Shown: positions 6,432 to 21,052 of the stretch, one piece after another | Numbering within the stretch: position 1 is the first letter of the stretch | Layout: each line of letters opens with the position of its first letter | The notes under the pieces: model-generated | Database searches by the model: none | What the model saw: only the letters and a program-made list of their open reading frames with translations | What the model was told of the DNA's origin: nothing | NCBI GenBank assembly: GCA_041648975.1 | Contig: JBAZNZ010000001.1 | Location: 40,961 to 104,960 of the forward strand | From: Candidatus Omnitrophota bacterium | GTDB lineage: Bacteria > Omnitrophota > Gorgyraeia > 2-01-FULL-45-10 | Length of the DNA stretch: 64,000 bases | Direction of reading: 5' to 3' | Program-made: the position numbers and the translations under genes

Positions 6432-6442
6432 GGAGAAACGGC

Positions 6443-7829: not shown

Positions 7830-7841
7830 AGCTTGTAATAC

Positions 7842-7887
7842 CAGAACCCTCGTGATATAGTAACATAACACTAATACGAGGGTTCTG
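7842..7887 (+). promoter_or_regulatory. 12-bp-stem hairpin between pyrE and the next ORF (CAGAACCCTCGT...ACGAGGGTTCTG)
   Basis: Perfect inverted repeat at 7842-7853 and 7876-7887 with a 22-nt loop and no T tract. The 3' arm contains the GAGGG RBS of the ORF at 7890. Confidence 0.4.
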
Positions 7888-7889
7888 TA

Positions 7890-8642
7890 ATGAAAGTTGA
7901 GGAAAGAAATAGGGCGCGACAATTACGCTCGAAGGGATGGTCTTTACGTGCCATAGCGTTTGAAATAAAGTGCTCTAAAAGCGTAGTAAGCAAGTGGATA
8001 TCGGACATACAATTAACAGAAAAACAGATAGAAAAATTAAAGGATAATCAAGATAGGGGACGAGCAAGGGCTGCTCAACATCCCAACAGCCCAAAAAAGA
8101 AATGGGAAAGAATAAGAAATGAGATTATCGAACAGTCATCGACAGAGATGCCAACGACCTTTTCAAAAACAGAGCTTAAAATTATAGGAGCCGCCCTATA
8201 TTGGGCTGAGGGATACAATGCTTCTCGAAATTATTTTTTGTTTACTAACTCTAATCCGGATATGATAAAAGTTATGATGCATTTTTTAAAAGAATGTTGC
8301 AATGTGCCGCTTAATAAAATTAAGGGGAGAGTTAATATCCACCCTCATCTGGATATTAAGAAAGCGGAAAAATTTTGGTTAAATGTTACTGGTATGCATA
8401 GATGTAACCTAAACAAACCGCTCCTGGCCGTAAGTAGAGCAAGCAAGCATAAAAAAGACACCTTACCTATGGGTACTTTTAATATAGGGATTTGTGATGT
8501 TTATTTGCTTTCAAAAGTTAAAGGGTGGATAAAAGGAATAGCCAAGGGGGCAGCTAGCTCAGTCGGTAGAGCATCCGGCTTACATCCGGAAGGTTCACAG
8601 GTTCGAGCCCTGTGCTGCCCACCAAATTTTACCAGAGTTTAA
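7890..8642 (+). CDS. HTH plus LAGLIDADG-like homing-endonuclease-like protein. The ORF reads through tRNA-Val, so the true C-terminus is uncertain
   Basis: N-terminal HTH (RNRARQLRSKGWSLRAIAFEIKCSKSVVSKWI), then IIGAALYWAEGY (a LAGLIDADG-like xxGxxxxxEG block). The reading frame has no stop before 8642 and overlaps tRNA-Val (8548-8624). Confidence 0.35.
   Translation: MKVEERNRARQLRSKGWSLRAIAFEIKCSKSVVSKWISDIQLTEKQIEKLKDNQDRGRARAAQHPNSPKKKWERIRNEIIEQSSTEMPTTFSKTELKIIGAALYWAEGYNASRNYFLFTNSNPDMIKVMMHFLKECCNVPLNKIKGRVNIHPHLDIKKAEKFWLNVTGMHRCNLNKPLLAVSRASKHKKDTLPMGTFNIGICDVYLLSKVKGWIKGIAKGAASSVGRASGLHPEGSQVRALCCPPNFTRV
8548..8624 (+). tRNA. tRNA-Val (anticodon TAC)
   Basis: Manual fold: acceptor GGGCAGC/GCTGCCC, anticodon arm TCCGG-CTTACAT-CCGGA, T arm ACAGG-TTCGAGC-CCTGT, encoded CCA. 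Confidence 0.85.
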
Positions 8643-8784
8643 CTCAAGTAAAATTTGTCCTGAGGAAGCTGAAGTTAGACTGTATGCTGACGAGGGGCTA
8701 CCTTTAAAAAGACTGCAGTTGTCTGAAAGGTTTTCCTTAATGTTCCTTTCCAAAATGGATGCAAAGAGGCGCAGAAAATAGTCC

Positions 8785-9033
8785 TTGATGAAAGAATGGG
8801 TTTTATATATAATTAAATGCCGCGACGGTTCATTATATACAGGTATTACGACCGATCTAAATAAGCGGCTTCGGCTTCACAACGAGGGTAAGGCATCGAA
8901 ATATACGCGATCCCGCAGGCCGGTCAGGCTGGCGCGTACAGAGGTCTTTAACAACGAATCTTCGGCAAGGAAGAGGGAGGCCGAGGTCAAAAGCCTTTCC
9001 CGCGCCGAGAAATTAGAATTAACAGCAAAATAG
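8785..9033 (+). CDS. GIY-YIG nuclease family protein (YhbQ/UPF0213-like), 82 aa
   Basis: WVLYIIKCRDGSLYTGITTDLNKRLRLHN is a canonical GIY-YIG signature. It ends 20 nt before tRNA-Asp. Confidence 0.75.
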   Translation: MMKEWVLYIIKCRDGSLYTGITTDLNKRLRLHNEGKASKYTRSRRPVRLARTEVFNNESSARKREAEVKSLSRAEKLELTAK

Positions 9034-9052: not shown

Positions 9053-9129
9053 GGGGACGTAGTTCAGTTGGTTAGAACGTCAGATTGTCGATCTGAAGGT
9101 CGCGGGTTCGACCCCCGTCGTCCCCGCCA
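9053..9129 (+). tRNA. tRNA-Asp (anticodon GTC), integration target of the island
   Basis: Acceptor GGGGACG/CGTCCCC, anticodon arm TCAGA-TTGTCGA-TCTGA, T arm GCGGG-TTCGACC-CCCGT, CCA encoded. The 3' 19 nt are repeated at 19436-19454. Confidence 0.85.
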
Positions 9130-9133
9130 TATA

Positions 9134-9165
9134 TAGCCGAGGGTAACACCTCGGCTATCTTTTTT
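9134..9165 (+). terminator. rho-independent terminator immediately after tRNA-Asp
   Basis: TAGCCGAGG-gtaaca-CCTCGGCTA stem-loop followed by TCTTTTTT. Confidence 0.6.
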
Positions 9166-9258
9166 ACGTCGGAGATCCTATTTGTCGTCGAGAAATCGTC
9201 GAGAGATAGGATTTTTTGTTTTCATGGCATTCTTGGAAATCTTGGTAATTTAGACACA

Positions 9259-9282
9259 TTTTGTCACGCGCTGTCACGCTGC
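9259..9282 (+). repeat. left arm-type repeat (TTTTGTCACGcgcTGTCACGCTGC), likely an integrase arm-binding site
   Basis: Direct TGTCACG repeats, and nearly the same 24-mer recurs at 19364-19387 near attR. Confidence 0.5.
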
Positions 9283-9398
9283 TACCCCACCGTCATTGCG
9301 AGGGCCGACCTGTCCTCCGAAGCTCGAAGAGCGAAGGAGGAAGGCCCGAAGCAATCTAATTCCCCGGGGATTGCCCCTATTTTTATAGAGGTAGCCCC

Positions 9399-9860
9399 AT
9401 GAAAGGCTACCAATTCCTTGAAAATGACTTCTTTGAACTTTGCCAGACCCGGGAGATAGGCCATACGCCTATGCTTCTCTATATCTACCTCAGAGGCCTA
9501 TTCTGCCGTTTCCAAAAGCCGATCTTTACCTGGCAGGACAAACAAACAATAAAACACCTCGGCATATCTCAAAGCACCCTCCTTAGAGCCAGGGAGTACC
9601 TCCAGACGCGGGGAATGATTAAATATGTGAGCGGCAAAGGCAGTCGGCATACCGAATATACCATGCTCGGCACCGTCCTTTTACCTATCATCAAAAAGAC
9701 GACAGGGTATCGTTACGCCAAGCCCATAAGGTATCGTCAAAATGACGACACCAATAATACGAGTAAAGAAAGATTAAAGAATATAGTAGGGAATGAAATA
9801 TTTAAGGGTATAACCGAAGAAGACAGGGCCTTTTTAAGGAACAAGGGGCTCTATGATTAG
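9399..9860 (+). CDS. hypothetical protein, possible winged-helix DNA-binding (phage/plasmid-like)
   Basis: 153-aa ORF, first gene inside the island. The central region TIKHLGISQSTLLRAREYLQTRGMIKY resembles an HTH. No catalytic motif. Confidence 0.4.
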   Translation: MKGYQFLENDFFELCQTREIGHTPMLLYIYLRGLFCRFQKPIFTWQDKQTIKHLGISQSTLLRAREYLQTRGMIKYVSGKGSRHTEYTMLGTVLLPIIKKTTGYRYAKPIRYRQNDDTNNTSKERLKNIVGNEIFKGITEEDRAFLRNKGLYD

Positions 9861-10074
9861 CCCGTGGAGCCTCATAAGGTGTCTAATATATCCCAAAACC
9901 TATATACGGGTGGATGTAATTTATGCCGCGGAAACCACCAAGGCTGTGTTAATCATATTCGACGGCCGAAAAGCATGGATACCTAAGGCCTGGATTGCGC
10001 GGCTTAAACGGACAGGAGGCAGATCTATTAAGATTAAAATATCAGATTATCACTGGGCCAAAAAATTTGCGTAG
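9853..10074 (+). CDS. hypothetical small protein (73 aa)
   Basis: ORF overlapping the previous stop (ATGA-type junction), basic C-terminus, no motif. Confidence 0.3.
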   Translation: MISPWSLIRCLIYPKTYIRVDVIYAAETTKAVLIIFDGRKAWIPKAWIARLKRTGGRSIKIKISDYHWAKKFA

Positions 10075-10165
10075 CATAGCGTTAAGAATCTAAAGCTAGT
10101 TTATCCCTTATCTATGATAGATGGTGTAAATCGTAAATAAGCACTTTATAATCTACGATACTCAT

Positions 10166-10296
10166 AAATTACTAATAAATTACTAATATCTACTAAATTA
10201 GTAATTTACTTGACATTTTTTTATATATTATGTACACTTATAATTGCAATTAGGCACTAAATACTAACCAATTACTAATGAAAGCTAAATTAGTAA
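10166..10296 (+). promoter_or_regulatory. cluster of AAATTACTAAT/ATTAGTAATTT dyad motifs flanking a TTGACA promoter upstream of the island Fic gene
   Basis: Copies at 10166-10176, 10177-10187 and 10197-10207 (inverted), plus 10270-10279 and 10287-10296 (inverted). TTGACA at 10210-10215. Confidence 0.45.
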
Positions 10297-10330
10297 CGGT
10301 ATATCTTTTGTAACTAAATAGGATGAAAAA

Positions 10331-11722
10331 ATGAAAATACCTGAAAATGCGCCAAAATTGGAATCACTAAAGCCGGGATATTTTGAAAAATTGTTTGATG
10401 TTCAAAGCTCAAAAGAAATGTCTTATATTGCTACATTGGCAAATAAGGAATATCTTTATTGGGATAAATTCAAATATCTTAATTTTCCCGAAACCGTCCC
10501 TCCAGATCTTGCCTGGATATCTCTTAAATTGACGCGAAATTCTCAAATTAAGAAAATACCGCTTCGCGATACTAATGGCCGATATTTCGGATGCTGGCTT
10601 CCGGATGAGGTGTTAAAATATTTGCATGAAATTGATCAAAAAGCAAGCGGCCAGATTCTCGTTGACGATCCAATGACTCATGCAGGCGAGAAAGAGCGAT
10701 ATTTAATTAATTCTATAATGGAAGAAGCTATCGCATCCAGCCAACTTGAGGGGGCAGCTATTACAAGAGAAAAAGCAAAAGAGATGCTGCGATTAGGAAA
10801 AAAGCCGGTCGACATTGCCGAACAGATGATATTAAATAATTATATTACAATAAGGGGTATAAAAAAAATTATAGACAAGCCATTATCCCGAGATCTAATT
10901 ATTAAAATACAGGCCTCAATAACCAAGGATACGCTTGAGAACGCTGATGCTGTGGGACGATTTAAGAAAAAAGGTGAAGAATATCAGGTTGTTGACCAGG
11001 GCGATGGAGTAGTTTTGTTTGATCCGCCGCCGGTGGATGAGATCGACGAGCGAATACAGGCTTTATGTGATTATGCGAACGAAACAAAAAACGATACCTT
11101 TATCCATCCCGTAGTCAAAGCAACCATATTGCATTTTTGGCTTGCGTATATACATCCGTTTGTCGACGGCAATGGAAGAACGGCAAGAGCTCTATTTTAT
11201 TGGCACATGTTAAAAAACAATTATTGGCTATTCGAGTATCTGTCTATTTCGCGAATATTGTACCGAACCCCGGAACAATACAAAAGAGCATTCGTCTATT
11301 CAGAAATTGACGAACAAGATATGACATACTTTTTGATGTTTAATGTGCGTGCAATCGATCTATCTATAAAAAGCCTGCATTTATATTTAGCCAAGCAACA
11401 ACAAGAATTTCAGGAAACAGTCGGACTAATACGAAAATATCCCGGCTTAAATCATCGGCAATGCGATCTTTTATATCATGCAGCTTCTCATCCGCGAGCC
11501 CTGTACACTGTCAAGTTTCAACAGAACGTTCATAATGTAGCATACCAGACCGCCAGGACCGATCTTTTAGAACTTGAGAAAAAAGGGTTTTTATCAAAGA
11601 TAAAAGCAAAAGGCAAGGAGTTTGTTTTTGTCCCAGCGAAAGAACTTCACTCAAAAATTAAAAACTTACTAACAAGTAGAAATTCCCATAATGGGAATAG
11701 CCCAGAAAGTGCCCACCCATGA
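10331..11722 (+). CDS. Fic/DOC family protein (463 aa) with C-terminal winged helix
   Basis: Fic active-site motif HPFVDGNGRTARAL (HPFx[DE]GNGR). Confidence 0.8.
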   Translation: MKIPENAPKLESLKPGYFEKLFDVQSSKEMSYIATLANKEYLYWDKFKYLNFPETVPPDLAWISLKLTRNSQIKKIPLRDTNGRYFGCWLPDEVLKYLHEIDQKASGQILVDDPMTHAGEKERYLINSIMEEAIASSQLEGAAITREKAKEMLRLGKKPVDIAEQMILNNYITIRGIKKIIDKPLSRDLIIKIQASITKDTLENADAVGRFKKKGEEYQVVDQGDGVVLFDPPPVDEIDERIQALCDYANETKNDTFIHPVVKATILHFWLAYIHPFVDGNGRTARALFYWHMLKNNYWLFEYLSISRILYRTPEQYKRAFVYSEIDEQDMTYFLMFNVRAIDLSIKSLHLYLAKQQQEFQETVGLIRKYPGLNHRQCDLLYHAASHPRALYTVKFQQNVHNVAYQTARTDLLELEKKGFLSKIKAKGKEFVFVPAKELHSKIKNLLTSRNSHNGNSPESAHP

Positions 11723-11784
11723 CAACTAGGGTGGCGACAAAAGAAATGAGCGGAGGAGTTAGATGAGAGGAAGAGAAGGGTTTT

Positions 11785-12009
11785 ATGATAAAAATTGCTG
11801 ATAGAGATGTAGTGCTAATGTTTGCCGCAATTCCTATCGTAGTTATAGTTATGTCGATAATTACTTTTGGATTTATTAGCCCCTTTCCTAACCCGTCCAA
11901 AATAAGCTCAGCCATTATTTTACTGTTAATAATAGTTTGGATATTTTTGTTATCGTATCTCATTATCCGCTTCATCATTTGGGCGGTAAAGACATTACGA
12001 AAGAGATGA
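11785..12009 (+). CDS. small membrane protein (74 aa, 2 TM)
   Basis: Two hydrophobic helices. Its stop overlaps the ATG of the next small ORF (ATGA at 12006-12009). Confidence 0.35.
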   Translation: MIKIADRDVVLMFAAIPIVVIVMSIITFGFISPFPNPSKISSAIILLLIIVWIFLLSYLIIRFIIWAVKTLRKR

Positions 12010-12122
12010 AAAATAAGAAATTAGAGATAATGCTTATTTATCTTGCCATATTCGGCGTTCTATTGTTATTTGGATTATATGGAAGGTATATATTTGCGTT
12101 TATATTCCAAATCCCCAACTGA
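12006..12122 (+). CDS. small membrane protein (38 aa, 1 TM), translationally coupled to the previous ORF
   Basis: ATG at 12006 is in frame with the annotated ORF 11937..12122. MKNKKLEIMLIYLAIFGVLLLFGLYG is a single TM helix. The longer 61-aa form is also possible. Confidence 0.3.
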   Translation: MKNKKLEIMLIYLAIFGVLLLFGLYGRYIFAFIFQIPN

Positions 12123-12127
12123 GAAAA

Positions 12128-12173
12128 AATAGGGACAGCGCTCATTTTTCGCAAAATAAATAGTCGCTGATCC
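12128..12173 (+). repeat. island 46-bp repeat copy R1 (AATAGGGACAGCGCTCATTTTTCGCAAAATAAATAGTCGCTGATCC)
   Basis: Member of a 7-copy family, 27 bp before the start of the 12201 gene. Confidence 0.85.
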
Positions 12174-12200
12174 TAAATAAGATGAATATGGAGTAAGCGC

Positions 12201-13448
12201 ATGGCAAGGGATGAAGCATTGTTTTGTAGACTGGGTGATATGCATGATTTTTTGGAAAAGCAAAAGCTTGGATACAGAGCTGAGATCGAATGTTTAAATA
12301 GAGATTACATTTTAAAAGTCAGCGAACAAGATTTATGCAAAAGCCTGATAGATAAACATACCCTAGAAACGCCTGCTTTACATGATGACAAATTATATGC
12401 CCTACCCGCAAGAGACGCAAATATAGATGTAAGCGGTAGGTGTGATTATGCAATATCTAGGCGCGAGAGTCCTTATTATGTTAAAGGTACTTCTATAACA
12501 ATAGCCATTCCATTTGAAGGCGATGGACAATTTTTCGAGTTCAGCCCGTCAGTCTATACATCGTATTTTCCTCGAGGGGTCATAACAGACAATGAAATTC
12601 TTCTCACATATAACGGTGTAAACATGGAACCTGCAAAAGTCAAAAGTGAATACGAAAATGACGTGAAAATAATAAAGGAACATTTGAGATCCATCTCTAA
12701 CATGGTAAAGCAACACAATGGATTTATAGAATCAGAAACAAAACGGCTTGTTGCAAATCGAAAAGACAAAATATTAAAAGAGCATAATTTAGTAGCCGCT
12801 CTCGGAATACCGATAAAAAGGCGGGAAGATTCACCAGCCACTTATACTATTCCTACCGTTCGAAGAAAACCCAAAATAGAATTACCTAAGGTTGGGGGTG
12901 GTGTTTTTAAACCAGAACCCACATTAGCCGAAACCGAATATGAACATATCTTAAAAATAATACACGATATGGCATTGGTGCTCGAAAGAAGTCCACGCGT
13001 ATTTATCGATATTAAAGAAGAAAACTTGCGAACACATTTCTTAGTTCAGCTTAATGGTCAGTATGAAGGAAAAGCAACAGGAGAAACATTTAATTTCAAC
13101 GGAAAAACAGACATTTTAATTCGAGATGACGGAGGAAATATATTTATTGCAGAATGTAAATTCTGGACTGGAGACAAAGGATTTACGGAAACAATAGACC
13201 AACTTTTAAAATATGTAACTTGGCGCGATACCAAAACGGCAATCATTCTTTTTAATAGGAACAAAGAGCTCTCATCTGTTTTATCAAAAATACCAGAGAT
13301 TGTAAAATCTCATAAATGCTTCAAGCGCGAACTTGGTAACAAAAATGAAACGTCTTTTAAGTATGTCTTTCAGCAACCTAGCGATTTGAATAGGGAATTA
13401 CTTTTAACAGTAATGGTGTTTGATGTACCAACAGAATTTAAAAGCTAA
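12201..13448 (+). CDS. PD-(D/E)xK nuclease-fold protein (415 aa), possible standalone defence nuclease
   Basis: C-terminal region E-x(n)-D-x(n)-ECK: KTDILIRDDGGNIFIAECKFW, a restriction-endonuclease-like core. N-terminal 250 aa have no recognisable domain. Confidence 0.45.
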   Translation: MARDEALFCRLGDMHDFLEKQKLGYRAEIECLNRDYILKVSEQDLCKSLIDKHTLETPALHDDKLYALPARDANIDVSGRCDYAISRRESPYYVKGTSITIAIPFEGDGQFFEFSPSVYTSYFPRGVITDNEILLTYNGVNMEPAKVKSEYENDVKIIKEHLRSISNMVKQHNGFIESETKRLVANRKDKILKEHNLVAALGIPIKRREDSPATYTIPTVRRKPKIELPKVGGGVFKPEPTLAETEYEHILKIIHDMALVLERSPRVFIDIKEENLRTHFLVQLNGQYEGKATGETFNFNGKTDILIRDDGGNIFIAECKFWTGDKGFTETIDQLLKYVTWRDTKTAIILFNRNKELSSVLSKIPEIVKSHKCFKRELGNKNETSFKYVFQQPSDLNRELLLTVMVFDVPTEFKS

Positions 13449-13483
13449 AATGACCAAGCAAGTGAGTGTGTCTAATAATAAAA

Positions 13484-13529
13484 AATAGAGACAGCACCTA
13501 TTTTTTGCAAAATAAATAGTCACTAACTC
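13484..13529 (+). repeat. island repeat copy R2 (diverged: AATAGAGACAGCACCTATTTTTTGCAAAATAAATAGTCACTAACTC)
   Basis: Same family, 33 bp upstream of the 13563 ORF. Confidence 0.8.
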
Positions 13530-13562
13530 AAATTGGCAGAAAATAATATTAGGAGATAAAAA

Positions 13563-13781
13563 ATGGAAATAAAAGAATCTGCTAAAGAAATAACTAAAAA
13601 AATGGACTTTATTTCAGGGGAAATAGCAACTTTTAAAGAAGCTCTTTGTACAATTATCGATAAAGCAAATAATACAACCGATAAAATGTTTTGGGCTTCA
13701 ATAATATATTTTTTAGGCAGCCTTATTCTTTCGGGGACTATTGCTTTTGCCGCACTAGTCCAAGCGAAGATATTAAGATGA
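13563..13781 (+). CDS. small protein (72 aa) with a C-terminal TM helix
   Basis: Hydrophilic N-terminus, then IIYFLGSLILSGTIAFAALV TM segment. Confidence 0.35.
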   Translation: MEIKESAKEITKKMDFISGEIATFKEALCTIIDKANNTTDKMFWASIIYFLGSLILSGTIAFAALVQAKILR

Positions 13782-13812
13782 TCTATGCAAAAAAGGCGAA
13801 TGGTTAGAAATG

Positions 13813-13855
13813 AGGAACGGTGTCTATCTTTTGCAGAATAAATAGTCGCCGACCC
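13813..13855 (+). repeat. island repeat copy R3 (diverged)
   Basis: AGGAACGGTGTCTATCTTTTGCAGAATAAATAGTCGCCGACCC, 34 bp upstream of the 13890 ORF. Confidence 0.75.
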
Positions 13856-13889
13856 GATTTAGGATTTTACTCAATTCCATCTAATAATT

Positions 13890-14642
13890 ATGGCTATTAA
13901 TTTTAATTCTATAAGAAATTTTATAAGGTATGGAGTAGATGTTAATAAACCTTTTTTAAAACTGTATGATATAGAAAAATTACGGCTTGATATAGAAGGG
14001 CTAAATCATAATATCAAAACGATCGATTATTATATGAGATCAGACCTTGACCCAGAGAATTTTTATTTAGAGCCAAATAAAGAGTTTTATAAAATGACAT
14101 TAAATGCCCAGGCAAATGTTATGCTGAACAGAATTGGATTTTCTCAAATTGATTGCCTAGTATGTTTTAGTAAAATTAAAGGAGCGGGACTTTTTATTGA
14201 AAAGCCAATCCCGTCTTTTAATATAAATGATAAAAGCCTATCATGGTCCAATAAAAATATTTCTCTCGAAATACAAATTTCATCTGCATTTAGAAATAAC
14301 CCTTTAATCATATCTGGAATTTTAGCGCATGAAATAACACATTTTTATTTTAAAAAGAAAAACTTAGGTAAATTATTCGATGCAAAAATTTCAGAAGAAA
14401 ATAATTGTGACCTGTCATCATTTTTGCTTGGATTTGGTAAGTTTGTTCTTAATAGTATTGGAGAGACAGGTAGAAATAGCGCTGATGCGGCAATTAAAAT
14501 AAAACATTATTTACCATGGTATTACCTTTGCTATATTTATGAAACGATAAATAGGATAAAAGCAATCTCAGAGGATATTTCGCAAAAAAATCTTACCAAT
14601 AGAGCGCTGAGTATGCTGTATGAGATTAACAGATGTTTTTAG
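13890..14642 (+). CDS. hypothetical protein with an HExxH zinc-metallopeptidase-like motif (250 aa)
   Basis: ILAHEITHFYF contains HEITH (HExxH). Asn/Lys-rich, no signal peptide. Confidence 0.4.
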   Translation: MAINFNSIRNFIRYGVDVNKPFLKLYDIEKLRLDIEGLNHNIKTIDYYMRSDLDPENFYLEPNKEFYKMTLNAQANVMLNRIGFSQIDCLVCFSKIKGAGLFIEKPIPSFNINDKSLSWSNKNISLEIQISSAFRNNPLIISGILAHEITHFYFKKKNLGKLFDAKISEENNCDLSSFLLGFGKFVLNSIGETGRNSADAAIKIKHYLPWYYLCYIYETINRIKAISEDISQKNLTNRALSMLYEINRCF

Positions 14643-14659
14643 AAAATTAAGAATACCGA

Positions 14660-14691
14660 AAATTTTTCGCAAAATAAATAGTCGCTGACCC
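14660..14691 (+). repeat. island repeat copy R4 (5'-truncated; no ORF follows before R5)
   Basis: AAATTTTTCGCAAAATAAATAGTCGCTGACCC lacks the GGGACAGCGCCC left part. Confidence 0.75.
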
Positions 14692-14744
14692 TAATTATTC
14701 TACATTGCCACCTCATGAAGGTATGAGAATACCTATAAGGAAAA

Positions 14745-14790
14745 AATAGGCGCAGTGCCCATTTTTCGCAAAATAAATAGTCGCTGACCC
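14745..14790 (+). repeat. island repeat copy R5
   Basis: AATAGGCGCAGTGCCCATTTTTCGCAAAATAAATAGTCGCTGACCC, 53 bp upstream of the 14843 ORF. Confidence 0.85.
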
Positions 14791-14842
14791 CCTTAAACAT
14801 TTAAACATTAAAGCATTAAAGAGAAAAGAATTAGGAGGAGAT

Positions 14843-15106
14843 ATGAACAAAACGTTATTATTTATTCTGGCATTGTTTTTAGTTTTATTACCAAATGTCT
14901 GTTTTTCCCAAATAGATAGGGATATTGACAATGATGGCGTTTGGGATGCTGACAAGGGCGGAGTTGATAGAGACTTAGATAATGACGGAGTTTGGGATTC
15001 CAATCAAGGTGGCGTGGACAGAGATATTGACAATGATGGCGTTTGGGATGCTGACAAGGGCGGAGTTGATCGAGACTTAGACAACGATGGCGTGTGGGAT
15101 CAATAA
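14843..15106 (+). CDS. secreted Ca-binding-repeat protein (87 aa; signal peptide plus 4x DxDxDG loops)
   Basis: N-terminal signal peptide MNKTLLFILALFLVLLPNVCFS. Four DRD(I/L)DNDGVWD loops matching the DxDxDG calcium-binding motif. Confidence 0.55.
   Translation: MNKTLLFILALFLVLLPNVCFSQIDRDIDNDGVWDADKGGVDRDLDNDGVWDSNQGGVDRDIDNDGVWDADKGGVDRDLDNDGVWDQ
14921..15103 (+). repeat. near-perfect 102-bp tandem duplication inside the Ca-binding-repeat gene
   Basis: GATATTGACAATGATGGCGTTTGGGATGCTGACAAGGGCGGAGTTGAT recurs at 14921 and 15023 with a 102-bp period. Each unit contains two 51-bp half repeats. Confidence 0.8.
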
Positions 15107-15118
15107 GAAGAGTAGAGA

Positions 15119-15173
15119 AATAGAACAGCGCCCATTTTTCGCAAAATAAATAGTCGCTGATCCTAATTATCTG
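15119..15173 (+). repeat. island repeat copy R6
   Basis: AATAGAACAGCGCCCATTTTTCGCAAAATAAATAGTCGCTGATCC, about 47 bp upstream of the 15218 ORF. Confidence 0.85.
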
Positions 15174-15217
15174 TTAAAAAGAATTGATATGCTTAAGTCA
15201 ATAGCGGGGGTGTGAGA

Positions 15218-15481
15218 ATGGCTATAAAAGATATAAGAGATTTTACACTCGAAGAAATTGTAAATAAAGCCACGAAAGGAATGGTGCCTCAAGATACCGA
15301 TAAATCTGTCTCTATGATAAGCTCCGCAGATGTTCTTAAAATTGTTGCTGATTTCAAAATTGCTCAGAAGCAGGATGAGCTAAATACAAAATTAATTCGG
15401 CTTACTAAATGGCTTGTTATATTAACTATCACACTTGTTATTTTAACGATTATTTTAACTTACAAAACCGTCAATCCATAA
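15218..15481 (+). CDS. small protein (87 aa) with a C-terminal TM anchor
   Basis: ATG 15218 preceded by GGGGGTG. C-terminal LTKWLVILTITLVILTIILTY helix. Confidence 0.4.
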   Translation: MAIKDIRDFTLEEIVNKATKGMVPQDTDKSVSMISSADVLKIVADFKIAQKQDELNTKLIRLTKWLVILTITLVILTIILTYKTVNP

Positions 15482-15499
15482 GCAGGGTAAATAAGAGAA

Positions 15500-16639
15500 A
15501 TGAAACGAACTATCCTAGCAATAGTTTTTCTTTTCACCTTAGCCCTTACCAGTGCTGCTTACGAATCATCTCCTGCCCAAGTTACCGATATATCCGACCG
15601 AGCGTATGAAGGGGCGATTATAAAGCTGCTCGACAGCGCGAAGCAGTCGATAACCATATCGATGTACACCATCACGCTGGCAAGCGAGAAGCGCAATCCG
15701 ATATCGATGCTTCTGAATGACCTGTTGGAGGCGCGGTCGCGCGGCGTAGCGGTAACCCTCTATCTCAATACGCGGTTCAAAGGCGATAAGGATATCCGCG
15801 GTAACCTGGAACGAAATCCCGCACTCAAGAAACTGCAGGACGCCGGATGCGTGATACACTTCATGGCGCCGAACAAACGGCTCCACGATAAGCTTATCAT
15901 AGTTGACGGCCGGTACGTGGTAGAAGGCTCGACCAACTGGTCTCTCTCGGCGCTATTGGATAATTACGAGTCAGCTACATTGATAGATTCGCCGGGACTC
16001 GCGCGCGTAAAACTCATGCGGCTTCAGGCGATGGCGCTCGCCGGAGAAGAAGCTCCGGGAGCGCTCGAGATAAAGCGCTCATTATATTCGGATAAGATGC
16101 CTGCCGAAATAGGACTACCCGAAGTTCTTCTTACCGATAGGCGGTACTTCCCGAAAATGGTAACAGAGAGAGATGAGCGCGCTATGGACGCGTATCTAGT
16201 CTTGTCGGCTATCTCGGCCGCGGGTGGGGACAATGAATTTTTCGTGGATCTTGAGTCGCTGGCTGTCAGCCTGGGGCTCAAGGCAGACGCCACGGACAGC
16301 GATCTCAGGCGCCAGGCGATCCGCTGGCTGAAAGATCTCGATGAGAACTACAAACTCATAGAGGTCCGCTTCTTCCATGGCAAGGATGCTCATGTGAAAC
16401 TTGTCACGCTTGAGGGGCCCCGCTTCCGGATAGGTTCGGCGATAACGCTCCCTGCGACCGACGGCAAGCTTTCGGCGCGAGTCAAGTTCATGAGAATGAT
16501 TAAGGCATATCTCGATGCACGCGGCGAGGATATAAATGCAATCTCCGACTATGAGCTTGCCGGCCGGTTTTACGCCAGCCGGCGGATGTTTTGTGACGCG
16601 CGAAGGGACATGTTAAAAGGGAATATAGGGGAAAGATAA
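15500..16639 (+). CDS. secreted phospholipase D/nuclease-family (single HKD) protein, 379 aa
   Basis: Signal peptide MKRTILAIVFLFTLALTSAA. HKD motif HDKLIIVDGRYVVEGSTNWS (HxK-x4-D-x6-GSxN), then a C-terminal domain of unknown function. Confidence 0.65.
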   Translation: MKRTILAIVFLFTLALTSAAYESSPAQVTDISDRAYEGAIIKLLDSAKQSITISMYTITLASEKRNPISMLLNDLLEARSRGVAVTLYLNTRFKGDKDIRGNLERNPALKKLQDAGCVIHFMAPNKRLHDKLIIVDGRYVVEGSTNWSLSALLDNYESATLIDSPGLARVKLMRLQAMALAGEEAPGALEIKRSLYSDKMPAEIGLPEVLLTDRRYFPKMVTERDERAMDAYLVLSAISAAGGDNEFFVDLESLAVSLGLKADATDSDLRRQAIRWLKDLDENYKLIEVRFFHGKDAHVKLVTLEGPRFRIGSAITLPATDGKLSARVKFMRMIKAYLDARGEDINAISDYELAGRFYASRRMFCDARRDMLKGNIGER

Positions 16640-16655
16640 ATGAGGGGAGAGTAAT

Positions 16656-16814
16656 ATGGCTGACGGAGGATTCATAATAAAGTTTAACGGAAAAGAGATT
16701 AAGCGATGTTATGCGGTGGCGTTCGATTACGATGAATGGAAATATACGGTTAATGAGAAGGAAGAAAAAGCATTGCCACAAGATGTTAAATCCATTACTA
16801 TTGAGGTAGAATAG
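16656..16814 (+). CDS. possible small ORF (52 aa), unannotated in the 60-aa track
   Basis: ATG 16656 after GAGGGGAGAG. MADGGFIIKFNGKEIKRCYAVAFDYDEWKYTVNEKEEKALPQDVKSITIEVE, stop TAG 16812-16814. Confidence 0.25.
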   Translation: MADGGFIIKFNGKEIKRCYAVAFDYDEWKYTVNEKEEKALPQDVKSITIEVE

Positions 16815-16832
16815 TAATAAAATGAGATCGAA

Positions 16833-17612
16833 ATGAAGAAAACGCTTAAAGGTGATATATATTATTTTGTGGATGAATCGGGCGATCCCTGTTTCTATGA
16901 TAAGAACGGCAATTATATCGTAGGACAAGAAGGGTGTTCAAAAATGCTTATGCTTGGCTTTATCCAAACGGATGAACCTAAGCATATAAGAAAGGCTCTT
17001 GACGAGGTGCGGGAGAAAATTAAGAATGATCAGTATTTAAAAGAGATCCCATCCATTGAAAAATCATTGAAACATTTCCACGCTACCGATGACTGTCCAG
17101 AGGTGAGGCAGGCAGTATATAATTGTTTGAGCACGCTTAATTTTAAGGCCCAATTCGTGGTTGCACGTAAAATCGAAGGTGTTTTTAAGAAGCACGACTG
17201 CGATGAGAATAAGTTCTACGATTCGCTCATAGAGCATTTATTCAAAAACGTTCTTCACAGAGCGGAGACGAACCACATCTATTTTTCAAAGCGCGGATCC
17301 AGCACCAGGCAAGAGCCGCTGGAAAAGGCGATTGACCGCGCCAAGAATCAGTTTGAGAAGAAGTTTTTTATTAAAGTACGCTCTAACGTTGATATTCAGT
17401 CTCAGGTTCCTACAGGGGAGCCGTGTTTACAGGTAATCGATTACATGAACTGGGCCATACAGAGAGTATTTGTAAAGGGTGAGATGAGGTACTTTAATTT
17501 TGTGAAGGATAAGGTGAGTTTTGTCTGGGATATTTATGATACGGGCAAATACCCTAAGAACTTTTATAGCAAGGCGAATGAACTTGATAGCAAAAAAACA
17601 AGCCTTCTATAG
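16833..17612 (+). CDS. DUF3800 family protein (259 aa)
   Basis: N-terminal DIYYFVDESGD motif typical of DUF3800. Confidence 0.6.
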   Translation: MKKTLKGDIYYFVDESGDPCFYDKNGNYIVGQEGCSKMLMLGFIQTDEPKHIRKALDEVREKIKNDQYLKEIPSIEKSLKHFHATDDCPEVRQAVYNCLSTLNFKAQFVVARKIEGVFKKHDCDENKFYDSLIEHLFKNVLHRAETNHIYFSKRGSSTRQEPLEKAIDRAKNQFEKKFFIKVRSNVDIQSQVPTGEPCLQVIDYMNWAIQRVFVKGEMRYFNFVKDKVSFVWDIYDTGKYPKNFYSKANELDSKKTSLL

Positions 17613-17736
17613 CTAGGTGGTTTCCCACACACGGCATGACGCCGGCTTTCGCTATTAGAAGACTCGAGTATTAGTATACCCTAAAATAAACGCAAGTCAA
17701 GGGCTCTCATAAAAAATAAAATAATTAAAAAAGTAC

Positions 17737-17765
17737 TTGACAGATGCCCAAGCATATGCTATTAT
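17737..17765 (+). promoter_or_regulatory. sigma70 promoter (TTGACA-17-TATTAT) for a leaderless cI-like repressor gene, overlapping operator O1
   Basis: TTGACA 17737-17742, TATTAT 17760-17765, ATG at 17773 with no RBS. ATGCCCAAGCAT dyad at 17744-17755. Confidence 0.55.
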
Positions 17766-17772
17766 TTAAACG

Positions 17773-17952
17773 ATGACAGATCAGGAGATCGTAGGGAAGA
17801 TAGAGACATACCTGTCAAAGAATAATCTCCGGCAGTACGAGCTAGCAAAGCAGATAGGCGTTCCAGAATCAACGATTAATAGATGGCTGAAGAGAAAGAC
17901 TAAGATTTCGAACGCCTATAGAGCTGTGTTAAAGACAAAAGGGATTATATGA
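17773..17952 (+). CDS. small HTH (Cro/C1-type) transcriptional regulator, 59 aa
   Basis: NNLRQYELAKQIGVPESTINRWLKRKTKIS is an XRE-family HTH. Not in the ORF track (<60 aa). Stop TGA at 17950-17952. Confidence 0.6.
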   Translation: MTDQEIVGKIETYLSKNNLRQYELAKQIGVPESTINRWLKRKTKISNAYRAVLKTKGII

Positions 17953-17976
17953 TTTTTTTTGGATTCAAAATTAGCA

Positions 17977-18036
17977 TATGCCCAAGCATAAGACAATATT
18001 TTTTTGTCTAAAAAATGAGCATGTGCCAAAGCACAT
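17977..18036 (+). promoter_or_regulatory. operators O2 (TATGCCCAAGCATA, 17977-17990) and O3 (ATGTGCCAAAGCACAT, 18021-18036) upstream of xis
   Basis: Dyad-symmetric motifs related to O1, positioned between the repressor gene and the excisionase RBS (GGAGGTGGGAG, ATG 18054). Confidence 0.5.
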
Positions 18037-18053
18037 AACCATGGAGGTGGGAG

Positions 18054-18239
18054 ATGACGCTTGTAACGGCAAAAGAGGTGTCGGAGAAGTATAGCATTCC
18101 CCCGGGAACGGTCTATTACTATGTCTCAAGGAACGAGATCCCGCACTATCAAATAAGGGGCAGAAGAAAATTTAACCCTGTTGAAATAGAAAATTGGATC
18201 AACCAGGGGAGATCGAGTGTCAATTCTAAAGTTTGGTAG
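18054..18239 (+). CDS. excisionase/Xis-family DNA-binding protein (HTH_17-like), 61 aa
   Basis: YSIPPGTVYYYVSRNEIPHYQIRGRRKF is an excisionase-type HTH, directly upstream of and overlapping the integrase. Confidence 0.65.
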   Translation: MTLVTAKEVSEKYSIPPGTVYYYVSRNEIPHYQIRGRRKFNPVEIENWINQGRSSVNSKVW

Positions 18240-19287
18240 GATATACAGTCGGAACGACAGCCCGTTCTTATGGATCTGGTACTATGATGCCAACGGGAAA
18301 AGGCACAGAGAGAGCACCGAGACAAATAATAAGAAGCTGGCAGAGGAGATACTTCATAGCAGGATTATCGAATTTCAAAGCCTGCAAAACGGCAATAAGA
18401 CAGTCAGCGATATGCCGTATGCACATTTCTCAGCGGAATTTCTAAAGCACTATAAAGCGCGGTATCCCTATGAGACATTTAAATCTCACAGCAGCGCGGT
18501 CAATGAGTTCACCAAATTCTTAAACTTTGCCGGTATAAGCCGATTATCCGAGATCACGACGGCGGTAATAGATAAATATATTACATACCTGAGAGAATCA
18601 AAGGGGAATAGGGCCAATACCTGCAATAACCACCTGAAGAATATCAAAACCCAGTTCAATTTTGCGATCAGTCATAATTTAATGAGAGAGAATCCGGCCA
18701 AGAGTTGCCGGAAGGTCGAAGTAAACGACGCTAAGAAGAAGAGCGCCCTTTCGCCAGATGAATATAAGAGTTTTATGGCGATCGCGGAAAAGGAACACCC
18801 ACACTACTATCCGATATACTACACCTTTATCCATACCGGCCTTAGGTTTACGGAGCTGATCAAATTAAAGTGGCAGGATATCGACTTTGAGAATAAAGTG
18901 CTATGGATCATGAAGCCCAAGTGCAAGAAGAAGCCGGATTTTGTCAGTATGCACGATAGTCTTATAAGGACTCTGGAGGATTTAAAGAAAGAGAGCGACA
19001 GCGAATATGTCTTTACCGATGAAAAAGGCGAGCCGTTTGGATTTAGGACCCGGAAGATCATACGACGGCTGAAAAACATACTAAAAACGGCCAATATTGC
19101 CAGCATAAGCACCGTTCACGAGCTCAGGCATACACATTGCAGCTACCTTTTCAATATAGGGCTCAATACGCGAGAAGTCATGGAGCAGATGAGGCATACA
19201 GAGATGAGGACCACGGAAGGGTATGCGCATATATTTAGGCCGGAAGCCAATAGGAAAATAAAGAAATTGGAGAGGTTGGATCGATGA
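18217..19287 (+). CDS. tyrosine-type site-specific integrase (phage integrase family)
   Basis: Catalytic region TGLRFTELIKLKWQDI...ELRHTHCSYLF...TTEGYAHI (R...HxxR...Y), with an N-terminal SAM-like core-binding domain. Adjacent to attR. Confidence 0.85.
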   Translation: MSILKFGRIYSRNDSPFLWIWYYDANGKRHRESTETNNKKLAEEILHSRIIEFQSLQNGNKTVSDMPYAHFSAEFLKHYKARYPYETFKSHSSAVNEFTKFLNFAGISRLSEITTAVIDKYITYLRESKGNRANTCNNHLKNIKTQFNFAISHNLMRENPAKSCRKVEVNDAKKKSALSPDEYKSFMAIAEKEHPHYYPIYYTFIHTGLRFTELIKLKWQDIDFENKVLWIMKPKCKKKPDFVSMHDSLIRTLEDLKKESDSEYVFTDEKGEPFGFRTRKIIRRLKNILKTANIASISTVHELRHTHCSYLFNIGLNTREVMEQMRHTEMRTTEGYAHIFRPEANRKIKKLERLDR

Positions 19288-19320
19288 ATAGAGATTGCTT
19301 CGCTTCGCTCGCAATAACGA

Positions 19321-19344
19321 TAGGGCACACTAAAGTGTGCCCTA
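19321..19344 (+). promoter_or_regulatory. perfect 10-bp-arm palindrome TAGGGCACAC-TAAA-GTGTGCCCTA just after the int stop
   Basis: Seen directly. No T tract follows, so it may be a terminator-like hairpin or a protein site. Confidence 0.35.
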
Positions 19345-19363
19345 CAATACGATGGGATGGGAT

Positions 19364-19387
19364 TTTGTCACGAAATTGTCACGCTGC
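19364..19387 (+). repeat. right arm-type repeat (TTTTGTCACGaaatTGTCACGCTGC)
   Basis: Matches the left-end 24-mer at 9259-9282. Confidence 0.5.
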
Positions 19388-19404
19388 GAAAAATTCACAC
19401 CAAT

Positions 19405-19809
19405 TTACCGACGGAGAGACCACTTCACGTCACACACCCCCGTCGTCCCCGCCAATTGGTAAAGGGAGCGCTCGATAGATAATGTCGGAAGGTACCTTCC
19501 GACGAAAAATTTATCCGCCGCCATATAAAAGTAGTAACTGGTTAAATACCAGCCCTTTAGCCGTAACAAGTTGATAACACGACTGGTTACGGCTATTTTA
19601 TTTGTCTTGCGTGTTTTGAGAATTAGTAAGTTGACAGACGTCCTATTTAGCACGCTTGAAAGCATAGCTACATCATGTTCAGTGAATGCAAACGGTAATA
19701 TGTAAGAATGTTTCCTTGTTTTGAACTGGTGCCAAATTGGCACCAGTTCCTTCCATTCCTCATCGGTAAGTTGAAACATAAATTCTTTAGGAGATCTCAC
19801 GGGACACAT
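19405..19809 (-). pseudogene. N-terminally truncated ORF6N-domain protein whose 3' end runs into attR
   Basis: FMFQLTDEEWKELV...LPFAFTEHDVAMLSSVLN matches the conserved ORF6N core, but the about 40-aa N-terminal part typical of the family is absent. The last about 10 codons lie in attR/island DNA. Confidence 0.35.
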
Positions 19810-19891
19810 TATTTAATTCAGTTGAATTAGGTATTGTGTCCCCCAAATTTAAGTGGGATGGCCCCACTAGTCAGGTCTGCACAAGCAGGAG

Positions 19892-21052
19892 TTACTTCGG
19901 GTCAAATATTTTTAATAGTTCTTCCGCGCAGTATATCTTCCCGCGTTCTTTATCCGTAGTTTCAGTTAGTATATTCATCGACTCTAACTTCTCTACGGCA
20001 GCCTTGGCCGTATGGAACGAGGTCTTAAGCGCCTCAGCGGTTCTTGGTATGCTTATGTATGGATTTTTTGATATAAGGTCGAGCAATTTAAACACATACA
20101 TGGAAGGTCTTTTTTGCTCAACCCGTTTCCTGTAATTATCCAACAAGGCGAGTATGGCCCTTGAATTTTCGACAGCATTCTTCGACTCATCCGCTATCGC
20201 TTTTAAGAAGAATTTAATCCATCCTGGCCAGTCTCCTCTCTGGCTTACGCCAAGAAGCCTCTCGTAATACTGGCTACGATTCCTATCGAAATAAGCGCTT
20301 AAGCACAACAAAGGATATTTCAAATATTCTCTTTCGCACAAAAAAATCATGGTTAATAACCTGCCCATCCTTCCGTTGCCATCGAGAAATGGATGTATCG
20401 CTTCAAATTGATAATGCGTTACCGCGCACTGCACCAGTCCGTCGAGGGCGTCTCTATTGTGAATAAACTTTTCAAGATCGCTTAACGCATCTTTCATTGC
20501 TTCAACGGGAGGCGGTACATAGGTTGCATCATTAAGAGTGCAGCCTCCGGGACCGATCCAATTTTGACTTTTGCGGAATTCTCCCGGTGTCAAATGCTGA
20601 CCTCTTACACCTTTCATGAGAATAGAGTGTATTTCTTTAATAAGGCGCAGCGATATTGGCAATGTACCGAGTCTTTTAATCCCATAATCGACGGCCTTGA
20701 CATAATTGACGACTTCCAGCACATCTGTCCTGCCGGCCTCTTTTTTCTGCTCGGCCTTACGGGCTGCTTCAAAATAGAATAATTCCGAAAGAGATGTCTG
20801 GGTACCTTCTATCCTGGAACTTAGGACAGCCTCTTTCCTAACGTATGGAATAATCAAAAGCGCCGGATTGGGCAGCTGCATTCCTACACCGTTCAGATTT
20901 CCCAGATTCCGGCTTGCCTCAGACAACAATTGTACAAAACTTTCATCATAAGTAATTTTTGGAGGCAACGGATTGGGAATAAAAGCAAAGTATCCTTTTT
21001 GAGTATTGATTACTTTACCAGCCGAGCTATCCCTGAAGGCATCGTTATCCAT
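19892..21052 (-). CDS. Fic/DOC family protein (386 aa) with Fic_N-like N-terminus
   Basis: HPFLDGNGRMGRLL Fic motif. Second Fic gene, lying outside the island. Confidence 0.8.
   Translation of the reverse strand: MDNDAFRDSSAGKVINTQKGYFAFIPNPLPPKITYDESFVQLLSEASRNLGNLNGVGMQLPNPALLIIPYVRKEAVLSSRIEGTQTSLSELFYFEAARKAEQKKEAGRTDVLEVVNYVKAVDYGIKRLGTLPISLRLIKEIHSILMKGVRGQHLTPGEFRKSQNWIGPGGCTLNDATYVPPPVEAMKDALSDLEKFIHNRDALDGLVQCAVTHYQFEAIHPFLDGNGRMGRLLTMIFLCEREYLKYPLLCLSAYFDRNRSQYYERLLGVSQRGDWPGWIKFFLKAIADESKNAVENSRAILALLDNYRKRVEQKRPSMYVFKLLDLISKNPYISIPRTAEALKTSFHTAKAAVEKLESMNILTETTDKERGKIYCAEELLKIFDPK

Follow-up and report, generated by a model that had tools for sequence, protein, structure and literature searches.

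Introduction

Lambda-type elements that use the 3′ ends of tRNA genes, among them P4-, P22- and HP1-type prophages and tRNA-linked islands, share a common plan. They encode an integrase with a full catalytic set, carry an attachment core that corresponds to the end of a tRNA, and reconstitute the tRNA gene upon integration. The core is flanked on each side by arm repeats, a helix-turn-helix (HTH) excisionase is encoded next to the integrase gene (int), and a Cro/CI-type regulator acts together with palindromic operators. In lambda, the integrase gene reads toward the attachment (att) site. Here, we analyze a 64-kb stretch of DNA (designated the window) from a Candidatus Omnitrophota bacterium (GenBank assembly GCA_041648975.1, contig JBAZNZ010000001.1) in which a segment adjoining a tRNA-Asp gene resembles these elements in each of the respects listed. 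We conclude, with a probability of about 0.85, that this segment (positions 9130-19454) is a site-specific integrative genomic island. The island differs from lambda-type elements in that its integrase family is restricted to Omnitrophota, has no close characterized relative and contains an N-terminal domain without a known profile. Moreover, the integrase gene is found at the end farther from the intact tRNA, and phage structural and lysis genes are absent.

Two other groups of elements resemble the island in organization. Pipolins and tRNA-flanked defense platforms (PMC11551731) feature direct repeats at a tRNA and an exchangeable reservoir of defense genes, but the island is much smaller than pipolins, lacks a primer-independent PolB and has another backbone. 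P4-like satellites and P2-like phages (PMC9122126), as well as E. coli defense islands (PMC10121019), combine a fixed backbone with a variable defense slot. As in phage satellites and prophage hotspots, the integrase and att module of the island is common to a temperate phage. However, no primase or replicase, Psu- or Sid-like protein, capsid gene or cos site was detected in the island and no helper was identified; in addition, the host belongs to another phylum than those of P4-like satellites and the two genes at the left end of the island, g1 and g2, are unrelated.

Bacteria of the phylum Omnitrophota are uncultivated and often ultra-small. To our knowledge, their mobile elements and phage defenses have barely been described and the phylum is without genetic tools. 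Our literature search found no paper that describes this island family in Omnitrophota.

Boundaries of the island

The last 19 nucleotides of the tRNA-Asp gene, ACCCCCGTCGTCCCCGCCA, recur exactly at the distal end of the segment (attL and attR cores; Table 1), as had been proposed in a preliminary description of this DNA made from the sequence alone. Exactly two copies are present in the window, also when two mismatches are allowed; none of 100 shuffled sequences yielded a match and none is expected by chance. A third or decayed copy was not detected in the window at up to four mismatches, nor was a tRNA-like remnant. The preliminary description had raised the possibility that the repeat belongs to a longer duplication unrelated to integration. 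Because the flanking sequences differ on either side beyond 19 bp, this is not the case; the 19-bp limit of identity together with the zero chance expectation rules out both a longer duplication and a chance repeat.

The core repeats enclose 10,325 bp with a GC content of 39.7%, compared with 51-53% in the core genes on each side. All called genes of the island are encoded on the plus strand, which agrees with the co-directional arrangement noted earlier. An ENA metagenome contig (ERZ27247363 k141_1098625) and a Logan contig of SRR8542065 contain the island with 100% identity.

Attachment arms

Loci related to the island were retrieved by a scan of one genome per species, which yielded ~15; these and the loci from further searches are designated by L numbers below. 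The two arms of the attachment site, P inside attL and P′ inside attR, contain several elements. The first is the island-borne terminator of the reconstituted tRNA, whose hairpin (9133-9158) begins 4 nt past the tRNA on the island side of the core and is followed by a T run. The preliminary description had correctly assigned this terminator to the island and placed it 5 bp after the tRNA. An analogous hairpin directly follows the CCA in the attP of a related phage that is described below. Further into the P arm lies a palindrome (AACCCTAyTTAyCGTCG...rTAGGGTT) that is kept, with compensating changes, in L005, L009, L010, L050 and the phage attP. It is probably bound by the integrase or by an accessory protein such as Xis or a host factor.

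Another element is the heptamer TGTCACG. Of its five occurrences in the window, four form tandem pairs (9262/9272 and 19366/19377), which are located within the island ~135-150 nt from attL and 55-70 nt from attR. The preliminary description referred to near-identical 24-mers with tandem TGTCACG inside both ends. The pairs are present in the corresponding sequences, TTTTGTCACGCGCTGTCACGCTGC and TTTGTCACGAAATTGTCACGCTGC, and the half-sites and right flanks are alike; the wording is slightly generous because the spacing is 10 nt in one and 11 nt in the other. In the relatives L007-L014, L016, L046 and L050, the stop codon of the integrase gene is followed by a tandem TGYYACG-like pair, an A/T-rich stretch and a CCGACG motif. 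A tRNA-Asp 3′ fragment ending in CCCGTCGTCCCCGCCA lies ~100 nt past the stop codon in the same loci. Their P′-arm pairs vary between TGTCACG, TGTTACG and TGCCACG, and those of L014 and L016 are more degenerate. The left arms of the window, L005, L009, L010 and L050 can be aligned well, beginning with the core and continuing through a variable segment, the palindrome, a tandem TGYYACG pair and the first gene. L010 contains the variant TGTTACG in both arms, a co-variation that is expected if the arm repeats are read by the island's own integrase.

In most relatives (e.g., L013, 1340-1380), the CCGACG motif is found within a TTGACA-N17-TAGAAT-like sequence of the P′ arm that points outward across the core. 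In the circular form, this sequence would read toward g1.

Integrase, predicted excisionase and putative regulator

The preliminary description placed a repressor-xis-int module at the right end of the island. Our profile searches bear this out: genes encoding HTH_3, HTH_17 and PF00589 proteins follow one another in that order, with the integrase directed toward attR. The integrase comprises a putative arm-binding N-terminus of ~65 amino acids, a SAM-like core-binding domain and a catalytic domain; R210, K235, H301, R304, H327 and Y336 are invariant across 32 homologues. Its best solved relatives, by profile only, are XerA (5hxy, 8e-28) and an "Int protein" (6en0), which we take to be the Tn1549 integrase. 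All source-named homologues with at least 34% identity are named Omnitrophota, and the homologues in the genome scan belong to metagenome-assembled genomes (MAGs) titled Omnitrophota or, in some assemblies, "uncultured Planctomycetia".

The gene for the 61-amino acid excisionase-type protein overlaps the start of the integrase gene (18054-18239 vs 18217-19287). The protein scores 25 bits with TIGR01764, under the cutoff of 28.8. A homologue is encoded directly upstream of the integrase in 12 of 12 relatives (L005-L016). Putative arm sites and a predicted recombination directionality factor are present, and both are conserved.

The 59-amino acid HTH protein is conserved in L005, L006, L007 and L011. 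The palindrome ATRTGCCMAAGCAYA has three matches in the window, compared with 0.04 expected, and these constitute the operator-like sites O1-O3 (Table 1). The 44-nt repeats that carry O2 and O3 are also found in L046 and L005. The simplest reading of this arrangement is a Cro/CI-like switch in which the HTH protein would repress its own gene and gate xis and int.

Backbone genes and related islands

Comparison of the loci by tblastn revealed a conserved backbone, of which g1 and g2 form the left part and HTH-xis-int the right part; all that lies between these modules is variable. Three relatives are complete islands bounded by an intact tRNA-Asp and a distal core: L009 (~9.8 kb), L010 (core repeats 10,288 bp apart) and L050 (~7.7 kb). 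A further ~9 right ends with the same arm architecture and tRNA-Asp core are present in Omnitrophota MAGs. The island belongs to a family restricted to the phylum Omnitrophota.

At least 176 clusters of homologues exist for the protein encoded by g1, which lacks a Pfam domain; all source names that give an organism say Omnitrophota, and the exact protein is recorded as a hypothetical protein in a Candidatus Omnitrophota MAG. An AlphaFold2 model with a mean predicted local distance difference test (pLDDT) score of 70 contains a well-predicted winged helix-turn-helix at residues 10-95. Foldseek comparison of the model with the PDB returned generic winged-helix matches only (E at least 5e-3), which include CodY, MarR-type and plasmid RepA N-terminal domains, and a search of PHROGs gave a weak match to the DnaD-like family phrog_186 (8.5e-4). 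Accordingly, g1 may be a regulator or a DnaD/Rep-like initiator. A homologous relationship to the DnaD-like loader of the phage described below was not supported (hhalign probability 2%).

Several relatives depart from the arrangement in the window. A homologue of g1 adjoins tRNA-Ser(GGA) in the complete Omnitrophota genome CP070780 (L049, 9761-10465), and two of three loci that encode integrases with 33-35% identity begin with a tRNA-Ser gene (L017, 12-104; L018, 101-188). Together, these findings suggest that a sister lineage probably targets tRNA-Ser. L015 (10001-11231) encodes a 46%-identical integrase directed toward an intact tRNA-Asp gene that is located on the other strand. The opposite orientation of this island relative to the tRNA implies an inverted core in the attP of that lineage. 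In L005 (9461-14470), whose integrase is 91% identical, an attR-type arm faces an attL-type arm and g1; the core is truncated after ACCCCCGT. The facing arms of L005 are separated by a 4.7-kb segment with 320-bp inverted repeats (97% complementary) and genes for HTH_3 and HATPase_c_3 proteins, an arrangement that could represent a cointegrate, a tandem arrangement or a misassembly.

An unoccupied site and a phage attP

A metagenome collection was searched with a pattern in which the T-arm and 3′ end of the tRNA are joined directly to the DNA that follows attR. One contig, L044, matched the pattern: an intact tRNA-Asp gene (1469-1546) runs straight into the post-attR flank, with the junction exactly at CCA. 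The flank is 91% identical to the window over 93 bp and 88% identical to L016 over 1491 bp. Judging from this junction, L044 is an unoccupied site relative to the islands in the window and L016; it also provides the comparison with a related genome lacking the insertion that the preliminary description had suggested. A same-strain empty site was also sought by exact-protein look-ups of the flanking genes, which returned occupied contigs only.

Viral contigs were searched for the core followed by the P-arm palindrome. This search identified IMGVR_UViG_3300033064_005435 (L053, the same as L134), which encodes a 73%-identical integrase followed by a P′ arm, the core ACTCCCGTCGTCCCCGCCA and a P arm, without a tRNA. 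The P arm begins right after the core and consists of a hairpin, the palindrome and tandem TGTTACG. Genes for a DnaB-like helicase (1.5e-87), a DnaD-like loader (2.3e-17) and a terminase large subunit (3.1e-87) lie downstream. When the ends of the window island, L009, L010 and L050 are joined at the repeat, they align colinearly with this phage attP. By its gene content and att arrangement, the contig is an unintegrated temperate phage genome with a real, contiguous attP. In a single-protein scan of viral contigs for integrase relatives, this contig was the only one found; in an alignment-based scan, the integrase relatives among the matches listed did not exceed 29% identity. The joined attP form was found for this related phage and for neither the window island nor any other island of the family. 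The preliminary description treated the lack of both an empty site and an attP as evidence against integration. Both were found at the level of the family (L044 and the phage contig), although not for this strain.

Cargo

The genes between g2 and the HTH gene are mostly candidates for anti-phage defense (Table 1), as judged by profile matches; several neighboring genes match known or candidate defense families, which is the mark of a putative defense island. The Fic, PLD and DUF3800 proteins that the preliminary description listed as cargo have Pfam matches to PF02661, PLDc_2 and PF12686, respectively. A promoter-like sequence, TTGACA-17-TACACT, stands ahead of the Fic gene at 10210-10238. The 379-amino acid PLD protein also matches PADLOC DrmC (2.5e-20) and, under the cutoff, NucT (3e-13); the GC content of its gene is 53%. 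It appears to be semi-conserved cargo, since L005 encodes a homologue with 57% identity and L046 contains a PLDc_2 gene of 378 amino acids.

Three other descriptions of the cargo stood in part. The protein described as nuclease-fold is a full-length PDC-S54 protein with a D...ECK (D...ExK) motif near its C-terminus; this motif is suggestive of a PD-(D/E)xK nuclease, but no match to Pfam or the PDB was found that would place the protein at the level of fold. The peptidase-like protein contains an HEITH motif and has no match in Pfam, PHROGs, NCBIfam or the PDB. Secretion was proposed for some of the cargo, and the N-termini of the PLD protein and the 87-amino acid protein, as read by eye, look like signal peptides. 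The repeats of the latter (DRDxDNDGVWD) resemble calcium-binding TSP type-3 repeats, with a TSP_3 E value of 0.0024 that is under the Pfam cutoff.

The cargo of related islands includes IetA and IetS together with an HEC-09/NYN protein (L009), AbiEi and AbiEii (L010), an N6/N4 methyltransferase, a ResIII/HNH helicase and PLD (L046), a methyltransferase set (L050), and a type I restriction R subunit and PLD (L005). Judging from these gene sets, the variable slot is mainly a defense-gene slot.

Model and alternative explanations

The proposal of an integrative island in tRNA-Asp is well supported, in that all lambda-type structural elements are present and are conserved in relatives. In our model, the tyrosine integrase would recombine the 19-bp core of attP with the same 19 bp at the 3′ end of the tRNA-Asp(GTC) gene in the chromosome. 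The reaction would leave the tRNA intact, with the island supplying its 3′ end and a new terminator, and the second core would remain as attR. The integrase would bind core-type sites around the crossover and the TGTCACG pairs as arm-type sites, as do members of the lambda integrase family; arm binding would probably occur through the N-terminal domain of ~65 residues. The 61-amino acid HTH_17 protein would act as excisionase, and the 59-amino acid Cro/CI-like protein would set the expression of xis and int through three operators, one in its own promoter and two before xis. Exchangeable cargo, mainly defense candidates, would occupy the space between the g1/g2 and HTH-xis-int modules. We infer these protein-DNA contacts and this regulation from the sequence, along with present-day excision, defense activity of the cargo and transfer from cell to cell.

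A number of observations weigh against this model. The attB and attP junctions of this strain were not found, and three of three public assemblies with the island show the occupied site. L044 represents a different species with other DNA upstream of the tRNA, and the flank that it has in common with the window is the inverted-repeat end of a serine-recombinase element. L044 therefore fixes the position of the right junction and does not establish excision in the same strain. The TTGACA...TAGAAT motif that most relatives retain in the P′ arm is present in degenerate form in the window (19393-19430). The N-terminal domain of the integrase has no profile match, and its arm-binding role is assigned by position and conservation. 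Among the cargo, the defense roles derive from PADLOC profile matches, several of them to candidate families, and the Fic protein falls far under the NCBIfam SoFic equivalog cutoff (59.8 vs 550 bits). Finally, searches of Pfam, PHROGs and NCBIfam revealed no genes in the island for a relaxase, a coupling protein, conjugation or type IV secretion, and none for capsid, portal, terminase, tail or lysis proteins, which is why we do not classify it as an integrative and conjugative element, a strict integrative and mobilizable element or a prophage.

Some of these observations would also be explained if the segment were a fixed remnant, i.e., a decayed prophage or old insertion that no longer moves and now serves as a chromosomal defense island at a tRNA hotspot. 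Only occupied sites are known for this strain, and the degenerate P′-arm motif could reflect some decay. Low-GC defense genes without an att scar lie past attR, which shows that immobile defense DNA accumulates at the locus, and a 55-nt repeat of the island (see below) has a further copy at a core locus elsewhere in this genome, which suggests long residence. However, the core repeats are identical at 19 of 19 positions, the int, xis and HTH genes are full length, and the catalytic residues and operators are intact, all of which argue for competence. Four complete small islands with a common backbone point to a designed element rather than to random phage decay, and no fragments of phage structural genes were found. 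We regard a fixed remnant as unlikely.

The phage contig bears on another explanation, in which the element would be a phage satellite or some other mobilizable island that depends on phages and has its integrase and attachment system in common with temperate Omnitrophota phages. It would be excised and replicated on infection by a helper phage, with g1 serving as initiator or as the target of derepression, and packaged in helper capsids; its cargo would defend both the host and the element against competing phages, as P4-like satellites and PICIs do. In favor of this idea, the phage fragment combines a 73%-identical integrase and the same attP architecture with replication and terminase genes; the sizes of 7.7-11 kb, the stable backbone and the variable defense slot resemble the satellites of PMC9122126; and g1, with its weak similarity to DnaD-like and RepA N-terminal domains, stands in the post-attP position that replication genes hold in the phage. 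On the other hand, no primase, helicase, small terminase, capsid-remodeling or cos/pac feature was detected in the island, the low hhalign probability separates g1 from the phage loader, and the integrase is the only protein of the window island with a match in the 7-kb fragment. Given that a single phage fragment is known and the helper relationship is hypothetical, a satellite seems rather improbable to us.

It is tempting to speculate further that the islands form a phylum-wide, undescribed family of small phage-dependent "defense shuttles" with more than 170 g1 clusters and sister lineages at tRNA-Ser, which would use the phage-shared integrase and attP for transfer and hairpin-delimited single-gene units as exchange points without an integron integrase. 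We consider this broader proposal a long shot.

As a site-specific integrative island, the element is compact and recognizable by g1-g2 at the left and HTH-xis-int at the right, with an attP known to the level of arm repeats. It can be used to find defense cargo in Omnitrophota, given that PDC-S54, DUF3800, PLD, IetAS and AbiE ride on the family. It also connects the islands with a temperate phage whose attachment site they share, and provides a candidate integrase and att pair for Omnitrophota. The mechanism is a textbook one, and the novelty lies in the host phylum, the backbone family and the connection with a phage. Conceptually, the island is a further example and not a new principle.

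A 55-nt hairpin repeat between cargo genes

Six copies of a 55-nt imperfect-hairpin repeat are located in the 12.1-15.2 kb stretch, which has the lowest GC content in the island (34%). The core of the repeat, its highly conserved 3′ half, is TTTTCGCAAAATAAATAGTCGCTGAYCC. Copies lie 0-30 nt past the stop codon of a small cargo gene and 27-57 nt ahead of the next start. The exception is copy 4 (14643); copy 5 comes directly after it, which gives an "empty" unit of 99 bp. A seventh copy is found at 59373-59415 between two ordinary core genes; the density is thus six copies in 3 kb, compared with one in ~70 kb of other DNA of the same genome. The hairpin, which contains three pairs with compensatory changes, folds better on the strand opposite the genes (-10.85 vs -6.15 kcal/mol). 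There it is followed by a T run, so that the repeat resembles a hairpin and T run on the minus strand, whereas the genes are on the plus strand.

Searches for a known identity of the repeat were negative. Rfam gave no match at the gathering threshold or at E of 1 or less, a scan for sigma-70 promoters and plus-strand terminators placed neither on the repeat, and a single match in IMG/VR was a chance match. The repeat is absent from all related loci examined, including an island with 92% integrase identity. An additional 10 kb of sequence of the genome that contains the window likewise held no copy. Both absences weaken the interpretation as a genome-wide repetitive extragenic palindromic (REP) element. 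In L009, five cargo genes are followed by copies of a different intergenic hairpin, AAAGGGGTCTGACCCCTTT (6211-8480). It is a GC hairpin with a T run, and it corresponds to the 55-nt repeat in position but is unrelated to it in sequence. In view of the hairpins in L009, a lineage-specific role as a terminator or REP-like element is the most economical explanation, and our leading guess is that the 55-nt repeat is terminator-like or REP-like.

Integrons and clusters of attC sites lacking integron integrases (CALINs) also consist of co-oriented single-gene units, separated by imperfect hairpin repeats for which the non-coding strand gives the better fold. It is nevertheless very improbable that this stretch is an integron-like or novel cassette array with the repeats as sites of single-gene capture and shuffling: although the six same-orientation repeats that each follow one small open reading frame (ORF), the 99-bp unit, the strand-biased fold with its compensatory pairs, the low GC content and the strong local enrichment would fit such an array, the aligned repeats lack R″/R′ boxes (RYYYAAC/GTTRRRY), no IntI-type integrase is encoded (the island integrase scores 74 vs 265 bits with TIGR02249 and 38.8 vs 435 with PRK15417), one copy lies at an ordinary core locus, the L009 repeats look like lineage-specific terminators or REP-like elements, and other loci lack the repeat. 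The integrase scores and missing boxes rule out the integron/attC form of this reading.

Table 1. Coordinates of features in and next to the island (window numbering).
Feature	Position	Strand	Details
tRNA-Asp(GTC)	9053-9129	+	ARAGORN; Rfam RF00005, 72.9 bits; intact after integration
attL core copy, 19 bp	9111-9129	+	last 19 nt of tRNA-Asp
Intrinsic terminator, island-borne, for reconstituted tRNA	9133-9165	+	10-bp stem, then CTTTTTT
P-arm palindrome ATCCTATTTGTCGTCG...CGTCGAGAGATAGGAT	9175-9212	.	conserved with compensating changes
P-arm tandem TGTCACG x2, 10-nt period	9262-9278	+	putative arm-type integrase sites
g1, backbone winged-helix DNA-binding protein (predicted), 153 aa	9399-9860	+	
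g2, backbone gene, 73 aa	9853-10074	+	homologues at same position in L009, L010, L011
Fic/DOC-family protein, 463 aa, SoFic-like defense candidate	10331-11722	+	PF02661 4.7e-21; PADLOC SoFic 1.7e-45
74-aa ORF, hydrophobic by eye	11785-12009	+	no family match
55-nt imperfect-hairpin repeat, copies 1-3	12125-12179, 13481-13535, 13807-13861	+	
PDC-S54 PADLOC defense candidate, 415 aa	12201-13448	+	PDLC05036 1.1e-150, full length
72-aa ORF	13563-13781	+	
250-aa ORF, HEITH (HExxH) motif	13890-14642	+	ENA gene call starts 14034
55-nt imperfect-hairpin repeat, copies 4-6	14643-14697, 14742-14796, 15115-15169	+	
87-aa protein, DRDxDNDGVWD repeats, signal-peptide-like N-terminus (by eye)	14843-15106	+	51-nt DNA repeats
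89-aa ORF, hydrophobic C-terminus	15212-15481	+	
PLD-family (Nuc/NucT/DrmC-like) protein, 379 aa, signal-peptide-like N-terminus (by eye)	15500-16639	+	PLDc_2 3e-21
52-aa ORF	16656-16814	+	81% identity to L005 counterpart
DUF3800 protein, 259 aa	16833-17612	+	PF12686 2.7e-8; PADLOC DUF3800_VII 5.7e-32
Best sigma-70-like promoter of island, TTGACA-17-TATTAT with upstream TG	17737-17765	+	directly before HTH gene
Operator-like palindrome O1	17742-17756		inside spacer of HTH-gene promoter
Cro/CI-type HTH protein, 59 aa, putative repressor/switch	17773-17952	+	HTH_3 1.1e-6; PHROG repressor families
Operator-like palindromes O2, O3	17976-17990, 18021-18035	.	two 44-nt tandem repeats between HTH gene and xis
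Predicted excisionase/recombination directionality factor, 61 aa, HTH_17	18054-18239	+	PF12728 4.1e-11
Tyrosine integrase, 356 aa	18217-19287	+	PF00589 7.5e-26; Phage_int_SAM_5; reads toward attR
P′-arm tandem TGTCACG x2, 11-nt period	19366-19383	+	putative arm-type integrase sites
attR core copy, 19 bp	19436-19454	+	exact repeat of tRNA-Asp 3′ end
Full-length SoFic, outside island	19892-21052	-	2.7e-123
PDC-S01 AAA_14/DUF4143 ATPase, outside island	21220-22506		PADLOC 1.9e-88

Neighboring DNA

Just past attR, positions 19484-19503 form a perfect palindrome, GTCGGAAGGTACCTTCCGAC, and the surrounding region (19455-19530) is conserved at ~88-98% in two other populations. In L044, the corresponding sequence belongs to a ~105-bp inverted repeat (1547-1650 and 3057-3162) around a gene for a large serine recombinase (Resolvase, Recombinase and Zn ribbon domains). 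L016 also carries the post-attR repeat sequence (8611-8714); the window keeps one copy only. Because this flank is an arm of the serine-recombinase inverted repeat, the DNA 3′ of tRNA-Asp serves more than one element as a landing zone.

A second low-GC segment (42%) extends past attR from 19531 to 22687 and is bounded by no att scar. It contains the SoFic and PDC-S01 genes (Table 1), and the presence of defense genes beyond attR without such a scar suggests that the locus is a broader defense hotspot. Over 21 kb, the window and the ENA contig differ only by eight clustered single-nucleotide polymorphisms at 24651-24769 in an MMPL-family gene; this cluster could represent a local recombination tract or strain mixing.

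Elsewhere in the window, GIY-YIG ORFs of 82 amino acids (8785-9033) and 86 amino acids (53244-53504) lie directly upstream of tRNA-Asp and tRNA-Arg, respectively; the second ORF overlaps the start of its tRNA. An HTH_38 ORF (7890-8642) runs into tRNA-Val. Another stretch of lowered GC content (44-47%) with strong positive GC skew spans 39000-46000.

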